From a virus (Duplodnaviria > Heunggongvirae > Uroviricota > Caudoviricetes), in the IMG/VR virus record IMGVR_UViG_3300001336_000001, positions 42,836 through 106,835 of that record: a stretch of 64,000 nt of DNA; one strand, 5' to 3'. A program made the position numbers and the translations under genes. Positions 42,920 through 49,506 of the stretch are shown piece after piece (positions within the stretch are counted from its first letter, which is position 1; each line of letters begins with the position of its first letter). The notes under the pieces are model-generated. The model saw only the letters and a list, made by a program, of their open reading frames with translations, had not been told where the DNA came from and ran no database searches.

Positions 42920-43957
42920 CTATATCAATTCCTGCTCAAAGAAATATCTTTTGGCGATTTCTGATATGTACTTGTTAACATCTTTAGGTTCAACACCAGC
43001 ATCAACTAAAATATCCATGTCCTCTTTAATGACATCCTTAATAACTAAACGTAAGTAATCACCTAACTTACTTCTATCAATCGTCCCTCCGTTCATTAAA
43101 TCACAAGCTTCACTCAGCATTTGAGATAACCTCCAGGTTGGTGTTACTTTTTCAGCAACATCTATTAGTTTTTTTATCTTTTCATCATCAACCTTTTTTA
43201 AGGTTTTAACTTTTGATTTGCCAGCGTGTTTATCACCTTTTACCTTGAAGCGTAATTGTGACCCTTTATACTCAGAAACCCAACAAATCCCTTCACCAAT
43301 ATCGCTAAAACCAAATTCTTTAGCAACTGGACATTCTTCCTCAACCCCTAATGTTAATTCAGATAATTTGTTTTGGAACAGCTGAGGATTGTTAAAATCA
43401 ATATCAATTGAGTATGTCTTGTAATCATCAATATTATAGATATTATGTTCGGGGGTCTTTAAGTAAGCATAATCAACCCAGTAAGCATTCGAATCTTCAT
43501 CATGTGGTGTTATTTTAACACCAAAGATGAAAAATGATTTATCAATATTAGATATACCAACATTTTTCTGAATTGATTTACCGCACCATTCACCGTAAAT
43601 CGTGACCGTGTTGTCAATCATGTCCAATTCATTTTTTAGGAAAACCTCAGAAATTAGTTGGTTGAATATTTCTTTTTTTGATTCAACAAAAAAAGCAAAC
43701 CCAGCATTATCAGATTCTGGTGTTATGATATTGTTTCTAGATTGTGCCCAGATACCATCTTCCAAATTACCGCAAACTGATGCGTTTGTACCATGTAATT
43801 TAACCGTACCCTTAAAGGTTAAAACTGGTTTTGGTAAAGAATGGTCATAAATCGGTTCACCATTATCATCTAAACCAACGAAGTTATATCTTTTATTTAC
43901 GTTGGTAACTACAGTTCTAAACTGCTCAATACTTGGAAATTTTATAAATTTTTTCAT
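42920..43957 (-). CDS. RNA ligase, T4 Rnl2-like
   Basis: Motif I TVKLHGTNAS (KxHG lysine nucleotidyltransferase). IYGEWCGKSIQKNVGISNIDKSFFIFGV parallels the Rnl2 segment FGEFAGPGIQKNV...FYVFD. Confidence 0.7.
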   Translation of the reverse strand: MKKFIKFPSIEQFRTVVTNVNKRYNFVGLDDNGEPIYDHSLPKPVLTFKGTVKLHGTNASVCGNLEDGIWAQSRNNIITPESDNAGFAFFVESKKEIFNQLISEVFLKNELDMIDNTVTIYGEWCGKSIQKNVGISNIDKSFFIFGVKITPHDEDSNAYWVDYAYLKTPEHNIYNIDDYKTYSIDIDFNNPQLFQNKLSELTLGVEEECPVAKEFGFSDIGEGICWVSEYKGSQLRFKVKGDKHAGKSKVKTLKKVDDEKIKKLIDVAEKVTPTWRLSQMLSEACDLMNGGTIDRSKLGDYLRLVIKDVIKEDMDILVDAGVEPKDVNKYISEIAKRYFFEQELI

Positions 43958-43979
43958 AATACTTTAATTATTTATTTTT

Positions 43980-44243
43980 TTAAATATCTTTTGGGTTCAT
44001 AATCGGGTCAATTGAGATTCTAACATCATCGCCAGTGTACTCCTTTTCCAATTTAATTAAATCGGAAATTAACTCATTCATGATTTCACGTCTTTTAGGG
44101 CCAGTTGCATGCACAGCAATTTCCCAATTACCAACCATTGTTTTATTTTCCTCTTTAGCCTTTTCTTCAGCAGCTTTTCTAATAGCTTCAGTACCCTCTA
44201 TCATGGCAGCCTCAGCTCTTTCATTTTTCCAATCTTCGCTCAT
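43980..44243 (-). CDS. hypothetical protein
   Basis: 87-aa ORF. Confidence 0.3.
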   Translation of the reverse strand: MSEDWKNERAEAAMIEGTEAIRKAAEEKAKEENKTMVGNWEIAVHATGPKRREIMNELISDLIKLEKEYTGDDVRISIDPIMNPKDI

Positions 44244-44570
44244 ATATTGTTAATTTAAAAATTCAATCTTTGATGTAATGGAAGACAAACCATTAACATG
44301 TATAGGTGTACCATCACCATCAACAATAGTAAAATTATAATAGTCACCTTCATAAGTAATATGTTCAGTTTCTAAATTTGTGATGAGACCATAGGTTTCA
44401 TCAATAATTTCAACTTTTTTACTAACTGGTATATTATCTTTATCAGTTAAAAAATAAACATTACCCTCAGGGTTATACTTTAAGATAAAACTTTATAAGG
44501 TTTTATCTTTTTACCAATCAAAGTTTCAAGTAAAATATCTGCAAGTGACTTTTTCATTATTTAACTAATA

Positions 44571-45080
44571 TTATGCGTTTTCTAATTTTTTAACACCCAT
44601 TAAAGTATCCAAATATTCCCACATAGCTCTACCATCACTTGGTGTGTTTAGGTACAAGGCACCTTTGAACTCTTGGTATTCCTTAGCGTACATATCTACT
44701 TTACCACCATGTTCAATGTTTGCAATTCGGTCAGCCAATTTAAGAATAATAGCATCTGGATTACTAGCAGTCTTGGGTAATGTCTTTTCTTTCTTTTCCT
44801 TTCGGTTTCTACCAAATTCATCCGTTACACAGCAAACCATTTCAAAAACTTCATCACCAAAATATACCCTTATTCTATTTATACTTATACCTGTATCTTC
44901 GAACACATCATGCAAATATCCAGCAACAATGTACTTACCAGAAAAACCATATCTCTTTAACACATCAACAACATCATCCAAATGTTTCTCATATGGGAAT
45001 ATTTCATCATAAGATTGGTTTGAGTGTGCTTTAACTGCAACCATTCTAGCTTCTTTGTAAATTTTCTCTGTGTACTTCAT
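44571..45080 (-). CDS. HD-domain small alarmone hydrolase (SpoT/Mesh1-like (p)ppGpp hydrolase)
   Basis: HLDDV...AGYLHDVFEDT matches the RelA/SpoT hydrolase HDxxED signature. 169 aa. Confidence 0.6.
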   Translation of the reverse strand: MKYTEKIYKEARMVAVKAHSNQSYDEIFPYEKHLDDVVDVLKRYGFSGKYIVAGYLHDVFEDTGISINRIRVYFGDEVFEMVCCVTDEFGRNRKEKKEKTLPKTASNPDAIILKLADRIANIEHGGKVDMYAKEYQEFKGALYLNTPSDGRAMWEYLDTLMGVKKLENA

Positions 45081-45099
45081 CTCTATTAGTTTTAGATTA

Positions 45100-47705: not shown

Positions 47706-48004
47706 CGTTTACCTCGATTTTTAGCCAATTTAATTAATTCCTCAATTTCATCCATATTCAAATCAGATAATAAATCCATTAACCCACCCTCAGATAACAT
47801 ACTTTTGGCTGCCATCATAGTACAGACCTCTGATAAAAAATCTAGGTCTGGTTTATTATGGATTAACCCACCCATGAATATGGTTATATTACCAATTTGT
47901 GTTATAATTTCATCATCTTTTTCATTACCCTCAGATATTAAAGCTTCACCTGTTCGCAATAGTTTAATACTCAATTCATCATGTCTGTCGTTACCACCAA
48001 TCAT
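47702..48004 (-). CDS. hypothetical protein
   Basis: 100-aa ORF overlapping the neighbouring gene (ATGA). Confidence 0.3.
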   Translation of the reverse strand: MIGGNDRHDELSIKLLRTGEALISEGNEKDDEIITQIGNITIFMGGLIHNKPDLDFLSEVCTMMAAKSMLSEGGLMDLLSDLNMDEIEELIKLAKNRGKR

Positions 48005-48036
48005 ATCTTTTTTTTTACAAATATAGTAATTATTTT

Positions 48037-48522
48037 TTAAATAAACAAATTTTCAGTAAACCATTCTGGTGCACCCCTTTTTTTCCAAGTAGATATATTA
48101 GATTTGTGTTTAATATAATATAATCGATAAGAATCCACTGGTGACTTTTTTTTACATTCATCTGGCATGGCTAACGCAAATGGTGTTATATCACCATTTT
48201 CATTTAAGTTTGGTCTGTGAATTAATGCCCACTCAATAACATCTTGTGATTTGTGTCTTTTACCATATCTGTACGTATATTCCTCACAGAGTGACAACCC
48301 TAAATCACACAACCAAAGGTAATTTTCAATACACTCTCTAGCCCATATTGAACATGGGTGATTTTTATGTGATAGTTTGTAGGGTATATCAAGGGTTGGG
48401 TTAACCACATGATGCACACCACACAATAATTGTGCTGATTCCAACAATTGTTTTATACAATGTTTGTCTACATGATACTTAGCACACTTTTTAGGGTCTA
48501 AATCCAATATGAAAATATTCAT
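48037..48522 (-). CDS. hypothetical protein
   Basis: 161-aa ORF. Confidence 0.4.
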   Translation of the reverse strand: MNIFILDLDPKKCAKYHVDKHCIKQLLESAQLLCGVHHVVNPTLDIPYKLSHKNHPCSIWARECIENYLWLCDLGLSLCEEYTYRYGKRHKSQDVIEWALIHRPNLNENGDITPFALAMPDECKKKSPVDSYRLYYIKHKSNISTWKKRGAPEWFTENLFI

Positions 48523-48588
48523 AATTTATTGTTTTAATATTCATGTAACAAATTTAAATAAAAAAACTTAATAAACCAAATAATATTA

Positions 48589-49506
48589 TCATTTTAATTT
48601 TTCTTCACTTACCACACCATATAATGATATTGGTGATGTTAATGGTTTCCAATCCGTGATATCGTTGGACATGACAGGCTTACCGCCATTAGGGTTAATT
48701 GCTAAAGTTATATGTGCTATTTTATTATCACTATGATAACCCTCAACCTTTACAGCAACAGCTATTTCTGAAATACCAATTTCAGTTGCTCTTATCAATT
48801 TTCTATCACCTAAATCACCTTTAAGGTTTTCTGGTAACCCAGTACCAAAATTTATTGTCATATGGTGTGCTATAATTTTCCAACCATCTGGTATATAATG
48901 TGATGTTGTTTGTATTAATTTTAACCTAGATGTATCATCAATAACTAATGACGCAAACATTTTGGGTTTATTATTGTACATATCTTTAGCTCCCAAAACT
49001 TTTGATAATGTCAACCCCCCATGACTATTGTATTTTTGAATCATAGATTTAATCTTATCTAGTGGAACACCATGTGTGTTTCTGTTAGCCAATTCTTCAG
49101 CAGATAATCCAGCGGTTCCGATATTTATAAATTTAACATTATCATCACTGTACCCCAAATTTAACGCTGCTTCAACATATTTTTTTGGCTCACTTGGTGA
49201 TAAGTTGGTATTGTCTATAATCACAGGTGAAATACCTTTTTTCATAGAATTAACCGCATTTTTAAAATTAGTTGAGTGGGCAATAGATAAGGGTTTAAAA
49301 TCTTTGTTTTTAATCATGTACTCAAAGAATTTGTTATAATCACCACTAGATTCAATGACATCATCAGTTGAATGTATAACACCATTACCCACAATTTGTT
49401 TAGCTTTAGTGCTTTTACCACTACCAGGTATACCAACCATTATAATTAAAACTTGGTTTGGTCTTGATACACTAACTCCTAAGCTATTTTCATTCACGTT
49501 TCTCAT
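48589..49506 (-). CDS. polynucleotide 5'-kinase fused to a 2H cyclic phosphodiesterase (Trl1-like kinase-CPD module)
   Basis: Walker A VGIPGSGKSTKA (T4 Pnk-like) at the N-terminus. C-terminal pair of H-x-T-x motifs: AHHMTI and AHITLA. Confidence 0.65.
   Translation of the reverse strand: MRNVNENSLGVSVSRPNQVLIIMVGIPGSGKSTKAKQIVGNGVIHSTDDVIESSGDYNKFFEYMIKNKDFKPLSIAHSTNFKNAVNSMKKGISPVIIDNTNLSPSEPKKYVEAALNLGYSDDNVKFINIGTAGLSAEELANRNTHGVPLDKIKSMIQKYNSHGGLTLSKVLGAKDMYNNKPKMFASLVIDDTSRLKLIQTTSHYIPDGWKIIAHHMTINFGTGLPENLKGDLGDRKLIRATEIGISEIAVAVKVEGYHSDNKIAHITLAINPNGGKPVMSNDITDWKPLTSPISLYGVVSEEKLK

Follow-up and report, generated by a model that had tools for sequence, protein, structure and literature searches.

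What is the function of a dense group of predicted RNA ligase, polynucleotide kinase and nucleotide hydrolase genes in a large phage? This question is raised by the 6.6-kb island at positions 42920-49506 of a 64-kb stretch of DNA (64,000 nucleotides in all, hereafter the window), which is the visible part of a large uncultured phage of about 288 kb (a 287,855-bp contig). Phage tRNA repair is a textbook counter to anticodon nucleases, and tRNA-targeting defences such as PrrC/RloC, PARIS, retrons, CapRel and Schlafen-like nucleases are widespread. From the protein families, their motifs and the order of the genes, we conclude that the region is probably an RNA (chiefly tRNA) end-healing and sealing system directed against host tRNA-damaging defences. 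Its core would be a two-gene heal-and-seal pair, namely a kinase fused to a 2H cyclic phosphodiesterase (Pnk-CPD) and an Rnl1-type RNA ligase.

The island contains nine open reading frames (ORFs), whose boundaries agree exactly with those in a preliminary description of this DNA. All of them lie on the minus strand, as do nearly all plausible genes of the window. The preliminary description had named five families here: an Rnl2-like ligase, a small alarmone hydrolase (SAH), a Thg1-like polymerase, an Rnl1-like ligase and a 5′ kinase. Five of the nine ORFs were indeed placed in these families by Pfam profile searches, all above the gathering cut-offs (GA). The PHROGs families concur with Pfam for the island ORFs, with much stronger scores, and the catalytic motifs are intact in all five named proteins.

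Pnk-CPD (48589..49506, minus strand, 305 aa) is predicted to combine a T4-Pnk-like 5′-OH polynucleotide kinase with a compact 2H cyclic phosphodiesterase (CPD). The kinase half matches Pfam AAA_33 (39.6 bits versus a GA of 27), and the N-terminal half of the protein aligns to the kinase of T4 Pnk (PDB 1LY1, E 8e-6). It contains the P-loop GIPGSGKST (aa 25-33), a general-base D48 and R142; K31/S32, D48 and R142 align to K15/S16, D35 and R126 of T4 Pnk, respectively, while R38 of T4 Pnk is not kept and is I51 here. The C-terminal 2H domain (aa ~177-305, about 125 aa) carries the H-x-T motifs AHHMT (aa 213-217) and AHIT (aa 264-267), which are separated by 50 residues. The P-loop, D48, R142 and both H-x-T motifs are invariant in 30 homologues with 58-78% identity. 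The window's own protein matches the Pfam family tRNA_lig_CPD (PF08302) below threshold (17.9 versus 23 bits), and 27 of these 30 homologues match it (best 4.6e-6).

To this we add the comparison of protein folds. An AlphaFold2 (AF2) model of Pnk-CPD, built on the homologue alignment with a pLDDT of 90.8, was searched with Foldseek. T4 Pnk was the top match, the kinase of Clostridium thermocellum Pnkp was also recovered, and a separate match was made to the 2H catalytic domain of mouse CNPase (E about 6e-5). A sequence profile of Pnk-CPD searched against PDB sequences reached T4 Pnk and no 2H structure; hence, the CPD assignment rests on Pfam, the fold search and the motifs. No match to a HAD (DxDxT) 3′-phosphatase domain was found in Pnk-CPD, its C-terminal domain being of the 2H type instead. 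The kinase-2H fusion that had been proposed for this gene is thus borne out.

In metagenomes, 814 homologues of Pnk-CPD were found, a good many of which are on 200-340-kb contigs; the source annotations call the protein only 'predicted kinase'. In tblastn against 50,697 deposited phage genomes, Pnk-CPD matched by its kinase half only (at most 52% coverage), with no full-length relative, and a search of genome contigs for the fusion returned only relatives of the CPD domain, in seven metagenome-assembled genomes (MAGs) of mixed phyla, which did not point to any one host. When the CPD domain alone was used in a phmmer search of the full library, 984 representative proteins were found at E≤1e-3, and the top 149 were typed with the window's own proteins as probes. 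Among these 149, 68 are stand-alone domains or short proteins (≤170 aa), 10 are kinase-CPD fusions and 24 are joined to a CCA-adding-type nucleotidyltransferase. Several also contain a LigT-type 2H domain like that encoded at 21348 in the window and/or a HAD_SAK domain like that encoded at 20780; two such proteins have the architectures CPD+CCA+HAD_SAK (711 aa) and CCA+2H+CPD (979 aa). What the window encodes as separate genes is hence joined elsewhere in one polypeptide, a line of evidence independent of gene order that the products work in one pathway on RNA 3′ ends.

A stand-alone CPD domain of 125 aa, 39% identical to the window's, was also observed in a Bacteriovoracaceae MAG, on a contig of 546 kb (L087). 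Its neighbours include a ligase-like ORF of 210 aa that contains the motif KFNGTH and a ParB-like gene (1286-1918, 3001-3378). The region is prophage-like, and the module may be present there in a minimal form.

The second member of the proposed pair, the Rnl1-type ligase (45957..47075, minus strand, 372 aa), is encoded by a separate gene about 1.5 kb downstream of Pnk-CPD. It matches RNA_lig_T4_1 (PF09511) with 50.2 bits versus a GA of 28.3, and T4 Rnl1 (2C5U) with E 1e-15 as a single sequence and 1.9e-19 as a profile, over residues ~40-358. The likeness to T4 Rnl1 therefore reaches into the C-terminal domain, and the motifs EKLDGS (aa 90-95), EGYVVV (aa 231-236) and KIK (aa 244-246) are present. 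In the PDB, the profile of this ligase found T4 Rnl1 only, with no match to Trl1 ligase-domain (Trl1-LIG) structures at E≤1. An Rnl2-type ligase (42920..43957, minus strand, 345 aa) lies at the end of the island opposite to Pnk-CPD. It matches RNA_ligase (PF09414; 41.7 bits versus a GA of 27) and, over its full length, phrog_548 'RNA ligase' (1.6e-55), and it has the motifs KLHGTN (aa 53-58), YGEWCG, GEGICW and RFKVKG. Its best PDB match is the nucleotidyltransferase domain of T4 Rnl2 (E 1.8e-4), with PDB and NCBIfam alignments that span only residues ~52-164.

Is the grouping of these genes more than a coincidence? To answer this, homologues of the window's genes were located by tblastn in 80 IMG/VR loci and four assembly loci; the counts given here are over the 50 loci that span 15 kb or more, which are not de-replicated and have flanks limited to 10 kb. 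The proteins of these loci are 48-75% identical to those of the window, and throughout the 50 loci the homologues lie on one strand and in one order: CCA-adding enzyme, tRNA array, Pnk-CPD, orf100, Rnl1, SAH and Rnl2. An Rnl1 homologue is found in 46/50 loci, at a median of +2.6 kb from Pnk-CPD, and a CCA-adding enzyme in 36/50, at a median of −7.6 kb (upstream). Homologues of orf100 occur between Pnk-CPD and Rnl1 in 31/50, those of Rnl2 at a median of +8.0 kb in 28/50, and those of SAH downstream of Rnl1 in 20/50, at a median of +5.1 kb. A tRNA array between the CCA-adding enzyme and Pnk-CPD was present in 25/25 loci examined with ARAGORN, with the order His, Trp, Ser, Ile, Asn, Met, Arg, Arg, Ser, and this arrangement is also that of the window. 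Given that this order is kept at 48-75% protein identity, the cluster is a conserved functional neighbourhood and not a chance grouping; that it is embedded beside a tRNA array fits a role in tRNA repair.

Other ORFs of the island and its flank differ in how widely they are shared. The conserved orf100 (47702..48004, minus strand, 100 aa), which usually lies directly upstream of Rnl1, has no match in Pfam, PHROGs or PADLOC, and it could be a partner of the heal-and-seal pair that has so far gone unrecognised. A 205-aa ORF at 47088-47705 contains the HExxH-like motif LFHEIRHE and has neither a family match nor a homologue in the relatives. The ORF at 48037-48522 resembles T4 endonuclease V (DenV), with a Pyr_excise score of 23 bits that is exactly at the cut-off and a phrog_624 match of 1e-62; it has homologues in 6/50 relatives. 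These last two ORFs are passengers of the island unrelated to RNA repair. Between Pnk-CPD and the tRNA array, an ORF of the GIY-YIG (SegE-like) homing-endonuclease type is found at 50825-51217, and its homologues in 23/50 relatives vary in position. Finally, two relatives have NADAR and/or NUDIX genes between Pnk-CPD and Rnl1 (L003, 11723-13113; L001, 11090-11737) that are not in the window's island. As these families act on ADP-ribose derivatives, they could be linked to a NAD-dependent removal of 2′-phosphate.

Between Rnl1 and SAH, and beginning 3 nt past the Rnl1 stop codon, lies the gene for the Thg1-like protein (45153..45953, minus strand, 266 aa), which matches Thg1 (PF04446) with 88.2 bits versus a GA of 29.2. 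It matches the Thg1-like protein (TLP) of Bacillus thuringiensis (BtTLP, 4KGK) at 1e-42 over residues 4-205, and true Thg1 enzymes in the PDB only at about 1e-9, with 3e-9 to 3e-8 for the eukaryotic ones. Its RLDG and SDE catalytic motifs, with the metal-binding carboxylates, align to BtTLP. On this difference in similarity alone, we assign the protein to the TLP clade and not to the clade of tRNA-His guanylyltransferases. No homologue was found within ±10 kb of Pnk-CPD in any of the 50 related loci. Thus, the Thg1-like gene is a lineage-specific insertion outside the conserved core. TLP genes are present in 162 deposited phage genomes, the closest phage homologue being 51% identical and located in a 635-kb uncultured phage. 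As early as 2010, Thg1 was suggested to be linked to polynucleotide kinases or RNA ligases (PMC2904730). The window's TLP may serve in 5′ repair or in tRNA-His upkeep.

The SAH gene (44571..45080, minus strand, 169 aa) encodes a RelA/SpoT-type HD hydrolase with a single HD_4 domain (PF13328; 43.1 bits versus a GA of 27.2), the sequence LHDVFEDT that fits the HDxxED signature, and no synthetase domain. Its best PDB matches are Lmo0812 (2e-14), RelA/SpoT hydrolase domains, MESH1 and a small alarmone hydrolase. Other SAHs reverse the pyrophosphorylation of the tRNA CCA end and restore aminoacylation, and the phage SAH PaSpo of Salmonella phage SSU5 neutralises toxic small alarmone synthetases (toxSAS). 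By analogy, the window's SAH, to which the preliminary description had assigned no particular function, plausibly removes tRNA 3′-pyrophosphate or toxic alarmones that are produced by toxSAS defences such as CapRel.

Outside the island, the window encodes further enzymes that would suit RNA repair. An RlaP nucleotidyltransferase (37829..39016, minus strand; PF10127 5.2e-24, phrog_388 3e-50) belongs to a family whose members extend damaged RNA 3′ ends by one or two nucleotides (PMC12776372). It had not been part of the preliminary description, and its presence strengthens the case for tRNA repair. Its start is overlapped by 4 nt by the gene of a divergent 2H-fold protein, orf193 (39013..39594, minus strand), with AHVSF at aa 62-66 and LHLTIG at aa 139-144. 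A homologue of this 2H gene lies downstream of Rnl2 in seven related loci. A LigT-type 2H phosphoesterase (21348..21917, minus strand; 2_5_RNA_ligase2 7e-10) has the motifs PHITLL and PHCTIA, and its gene overlaps by 11 nt that of a 'Swiss Army Knife' (SAK) HAD phosphatase (20780..21358, minus strand; HAD_SAK_1 9e-14). HAD_SAK is fused to CPD and CCA domains in other organisms. A class II CCA-adding-type tRNA nucleotidyltransferase (56305..57447, minus strand) matches PolyA_pol (1e-38) and PolyA_pol_RNAbd (5e-6). The two additional 2H proteins, a HAD phosphatase and the CCA-adding enzyme had all been listed in the preliminary description, and each of them is found. Three calcineurin-like metallophosphoesterases (Metallophos) were also observed, at 8309-8998, 24465-25082 and 36162-36917, and they are candidate RNA 2′/3′-phosphatases.

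The window also contains tRNA genes. About 22 had been estimated, with tRNA-Lys(TTT) among them; the count is 21 (19 found by ARAGORN and two by Rfam alone), and two Lys-TTT genes are present. Ten form the array between the CCA-adding enzyme and Pnk-CPD (51292..53319, minus strand), in the order Asn, His, Trp, an Rfam-only tRNA, Ser, Ile, Met, Arg, Arg and Ser. The second array has 11 genes (27463..29148, minus strand) that include Lys-CTT and the two Lys-TTT.

Five tRNAs of the window that are not for Leu, Ser or Tyr are 83-91 nt long and have a base-paired long variable arm, as in class II tRNAs. They are Lys-CTT (27463-27553), Lys-TTT (27696-27778), Gln-TTG (28407-28490), Ile-GAT (52641-52727) and His-GTG (53159-53242). 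Such tRNAs are also present in 20/25 related loci (L003, L013, L019, L024, L044, L064 and others), with Ile at 84-87 nt, His at 85-94 nt and Asn at 86-90 nt, and with Thr, Pro and Met as well. A long-arm tRNA often adjoins one of normal length with the identical anticodon. Long variable arms are hence a conserved trait of this phage clade, and a literature search gave no description of phage tRNAs with them. Some relatives also have a tRNA whose anticodon is CTA and to which ARAGORN gives the label 'Pyl' (L053, 4624-4699; L069, 2058-2129; L071, 130-202). Such a potential amber suppressor may point to the recoding of stop codons within a part of the clade.

How might these components act together? 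The scheme proposed here builds on the families, motifs, synteny and fusions described above, from which we infer the substrates, the product chemistry and the link to defence. The 2H domain of Pnk-CPD would open the 2′,3′-cyclic phosphate made by metal-independent tRNA nucleases, with a 3′-OH,2′-PO4 end as the expected product by analogy with the CPD of Trl1, CNPase and LigT, while the kinase domain would put a phosphate back on the 5′-OH end. The Rnl1-type ligase would then seal the broken tRNA loop, and Rnl2 would seal nicks in duplex RNA. Ahead of ligation, RlaP may restore one or two lost 3′ nucleotides. The SAK-HAD phosphatase and the two free-standing 2H proteins may strip cyclic and monoester phosphates, possibly including the 2′-PO4, and the CCA-adding enzyme would build or rebuild the 3′ CCA. 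The RSH (RelA/SpoT homologue)-type hydrolase would clear the tRNA 3′-pyrophosphate left by toxSAS/CapRel-type defences or degrade alarmones. In this lineage only, the Thg1-like 3′-5′ polymerase would rebuild 5′ ends. The two phage tRNA arrays would provide replacement tRNAs.

A specific form of this scheme is a hybrid route, in which a yeast/plant-type kinase-CPD leaves a 2′-PO4 end that is sealed by a T4-type Rnl1. We know of it as undescribed for any virus, and we put it forward as a tentative, rather doubtful proposal. In one version of the route, the repaired junction keeps its 2′-phosphate. Since this would block the 2′-OH nucleophile, the repaired tRNA might be immune to re-cleavage by transesterifying anticodon nucleases. 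Methylation by Hen1 gives a like protection in bacterial Pnkp/Hen1 systems. In another version, an enzyme other than Tpt1, for instance the SAK-HAD phosphatase, takes the 2′-phosphate off. The conserved 'twin' tRNAs of class-II-like form (those for Ile, His, Asn, Lys and Gln that have long variable arms), whose genes lie beside the kit, could belong to the same strategy.

Several points weigh against the reading of the region as a repair system. Every function proposed for it is inferred from homology and gene context. The window contains nothing that bears on the defences of the host, and the host rich in tRNA-targeting defences that the preliminary description had implied is conjecture. In yeast, the junction 2′-phosphate is removed by Tpt1 and the ligase needs a 2′-PO4, while T4 Rnl1 works with the 2′,3′-diol that is left by T4 Pnkp (PMC1920235). 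The window's ligase resembles T4 Rnl1 and not the 2′-PO4-requiring Trl1 ligase. Moreover, Pfam found no Tpt1/KptA (PF01885) among the window's minus-strand ORFs of at least 150 aa and 20 further ORFs of 81-147 aa. Two candidates were considered for this activity, at 14991-15422 (Arr-ms-like, 1.9e-8) and 16821-17222 (ART-PolyVal, 1e-14), and were rejected because they have the ADP-ribosyltransferase (ART) fold but are not Tpt1-like. A 2′-PO4 end that is predicted by CPD-type healing, with no visible Tpt1, is thus the main gap of the mechanism. Possibly the ligase tolerates the 2′-PO4, or the SAK-HAD or a Metallophos protein removes it before sealing, or the remover is encoded in the unseen 224 kb. 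In addition, the proteins missed the equivalog cut-offs of NCBIfam and are divergent family members rather than orthologues of the type enzymes. Rnl2 scores 37.7 bits versus 197 (TIGR02307), Rnl1 scores 67.4 versus 242, and the CCA-adding enzyme, whose best model is the CCA tRNA nucleotidyltransferase and which PcnB models match too, scores 211.7 versus 290. For the TLP, Pnk-CPD and RlaP, NCBIfam gave no match at all. With scores so far under the cut-offs, the substrate specificity of the ligases and of the CCA-adding enzyme may differ from that of the type enzymes. Nor is a biological role known for T4 Rnl2 itself.

The cluster could instead be mainly a maturation suite for the phage's own tRNA genes, of which there are at least 21, and not a counter-defence kit. 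Under this explanation, the CCA-adding enzyme would finish 3′ ends, the Thg1-like protein would maintain the G-1 of tRNA-His or trim and rebuild 5′ ends, while unusual precursors would be processed by the kinase, the CPD and the ligases. The tRNA genes themselves lend this idea some weight, and several of the tRNAs have abnormally long variable arms. The CCA is encoded in just two of the 21, Lys-CTT (27463) and the Rfam-only tRNA (27908), and nearly all the others end with a single C after the discriminator (C74) that is followed by A/T-rich sequence. Since 19/21 genes lack the CCA, the CCA-adding enzyme is needed to mature the phage tRNAs and also has a plain, non-repair job. The 3′ CCA end repair claimed in the preliminary description is therefore confounded, although the enzyme itself is present. 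The location of the array, which is flanked by the CCA-adding enzyme and Pnk-CPD both in the window and in 25/25 relatives, suits maturation as well. So does the close spacing of tRNA-Asn and tRNA-His (53242-53245), which are 1 nt apart by ARAGORN, with 2 nt from the Asn discriminator to the His G-1; the phage tRNA-His has an 8-bp acceptor stem in which this G-1 is paired to C73. However, the G-1 is already encoded, and the Thg1-like protein falls in the TLP clade rather than among true tRNA-His guanylyltransferases. Its gene is also missing from all 50 relatives despite the same tRNA array, and L065 and L075 even have the same Asn/His junction. Evidently, the TLP is neither needed for tRNA-His nor part of the core. 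The 5′ repair previously ascribed to it thus retains the family assignment, while a place in the conserved module is lost. Moreover, ARAGORN called no tRNA introns, and we know of no role for a kinase-CPD with a ligase in bacterial tRNA maturation. We therefore regard maturation as an unlikely main purpose of the cluster.

Another possibility is that the 2H domains and the HD hydrolase chiefly destroy immune signalling nucleotides rather than heal RNA ends. Their targets would be cyclic oligonucleotides, 2′,3′-cyclic nucleotides, (p)ppGpp or (pp)pApp, and their function would be anti-CBASS, anti-type-III-CRISPR or anti-alarmone. The 2H protein at 21348 does match the anti-CBASS Acb1 family (1.4e-6), and the fold matches of orf193 include the poxvirus cGAMP phosphodiesterase and Acb1. 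A jumbo-phage survey likewise reads HD-alarmone phosphodiesterases and 2H proteins partly as destroyers of immune signals (PMC7824862). For these two stand-alone 2H proteins and the SAH, such a role is plausible, but it does not fit the core. The CPD of Pnk-CPD is joined to a kinase P-loop and linked to an RNA ligase in 46/50 loci. Its 2H domain matches the tRNA-ligase CPD family and not Acb1 in Pfam, and elsewhere it is fused to CCA-adding nucleotidyltransferases and SAK phosphatases. As an account of the whole region, signal destruction appears to be even less likely than maturation. Least probable of all, to the point of being remote, is that the kinase and the ligases act on DNA or RNA-DNA hybrids in replication, nick repair or recombination, with the tRNA genes grouped nearby only because they share an early-gene neighbourhood. 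T4 Pnk phosphorylates both DNA and RNA, and its structures bound to single-stranded DNA are among the fold matches; a DenV-like ORF lies within the island, and the relative L001 has an ATP-dependent DNA ligase nearby. Against this, a 2′,3′-cyclic phosphate can form only where there is a ribose 2′-OH, which leaves a 2H cyclic phosphodiesterase without any substrate in DNA. All characterised members of the Rnl1, TLP, RlaP, CCA and SAK-HAD families are specific for RNA, and the DenV-like ORF is kept in only 6/50 relatives. RNA end-healing and sealing hence stays the preferred explanation for the region.

The remaining features of the window can be given briefly. The GC content across the island is 0.29-0.32, compared to 0.30 for the window, which is AT-rich; since this profile is flat, it contains no compositional trace of recent transfer, the lineage-specific TLP gene included. 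Megablast of the 6.6-kb island against the same 50,697 phage genomes gave no DNA match, Rfam found nothing in the island even at a permissive threshold, and PADLOC gave only a generic P-loop match there. Neither a sigma-70 promoter scan (51 versus 44±8 in shuffled sequence) nor a terminator scan (2 versus 2.3) exceeded the shuffled sequence. Elsewhere, the window encodes two sigma-70-family factors (11516-12391 and 23902-24453) and a tyrosine recombinase/integrase (12472-13284). An RNase II/R-type exoribonuclease with cold-shock/OB domains (18329-19879; RNB 3e-108) is followed by a small, separate S1-domain protein (17936-18322), and together they look like an RNase R split over two genes. A TnpB/IS605 OrfB-type protein (29868-31049; Cas12f1-like TNB, OrfB_IS605 and HTH domains) adjoins the tRNA array at 27463..29148. 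A 536-aa protein (34105..35715) carries a type IX secretion C-terminal sorting domain (Por_Secre_tail, 6e-12), and this domain hints that the phage host is a member of Bacteroidota.

Taken together, our results describe a clade of large environmental phages that retains a fixed module of CCA-adding enzyme, tRNA array, kinase-CPD, Rnl1, SAH and Rnl2. This raises the questions of what becomes of the 2′-phosphate, whether a T4-type Rnl1 can seal 2′-PO4 ends, and whether the phage enzyme shares ancestry with the healing module of eukaryotic tRNA ligases. The compact enzymes, a 125-aa CPD and a 305-aa kinase-CPD, are also of interest as tools for the manipulation of RNA ends.

Among known systems, the one that invites the first comparison is the Pnkp/Rnl1 pair with which T4 counters PrrC. 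The two have in common a P-loop 5′-OH kinase homologous to T4 Pnk, an Rnl1-family ligase with near full-length homology, a phage genome as their carrier and genes for tRNA-Lys(TTT). They differ in that a 2H cyclic phosphodiesterase is found here in place of the DxDxT (HAD) phosphatase of T4 Pnkp, so that the predicted product is 3′-OH,2′-PO4 rather than the 2′,3′-diol of T4, and in that the present kit has many more accessory enzymes. The predicted chemistry is accordingly not that of an enlarged T4 toolkit: the healing enzyme is of the yeast/plant Trl1 and CNPase type and not of the T4 type with its HAD phosphatase. With the eukaryotic ligases Trl1 and AtRNL (LIG-KIN-CPD), the phage system shares the order of kinase then 2H domain, the two H-x-T motifs, the Pfam match to the CPD family of fungal tRNA ligases and a partner ligase of the PF09511 superfamily, and with CNPase the fold of its catalytic domain. 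In contrast to Trl1 and AtRNL, the phage ligase is a separate gene product that is like T4 Rnl1 and has no Trl1-LIG match at E≤1, its CPD is very compact (~125 aa), no Tpt1 was found in the window, and the setting is a phage rather than eukaryotic tRNA splicing. The TLP keeps the RxDG and SDE motifs of bacterial and archaeal TLPs, as expected from its 1e-42 match to 4KGK, but its placement between Rnl1 and SAH recurs in none of the 50 relatives. The SAH is a single-domain RSH hydrolase with HDxxED like those that reverse toxSAS (C. marina ATfaRel, human MESH1 and SSU5 PaSpo); unlike them, it is a prediction, and its position in an RNA-ligase cluster is kept in 20/50 relatives.

The closest published counterpart is the RNA repair kit of jumbo phages, as surveyed by Iyer et al. 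in 2021 (PMC7824862). According to that survey, such kits comprise Rnl1, Rnl2, RtcB, polynucleotide kinases, SAK-HAD, 2H, RlaP and CCA-adding enzymes, with sporadic Thg1 and KptA, many tRNAs and an HD-alarmone hydrolase, and a single phage may hold several ligases. The window likewise encodes a CCA-type nucleotidyltransferase, 2H proteins, a SAK-HAD, a kinase and RNA ligases. In the text accessible to us, however, the kinase of the survey is usually fused to a HAD phosphatase, with the 2H proteins acting separately, and no mention is made of a kinase-2H fusion, nor of one partnered with a T4-type Rnl1. Given that large RNA repair kits in jumbo phages are already published, the gain here is incremental rather than conceptual. 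What distinguishes the present system is the predicted pairing of a kinase-CPD healing enzyme of the Trl1/CNPase type with a T4-type Rnl1.

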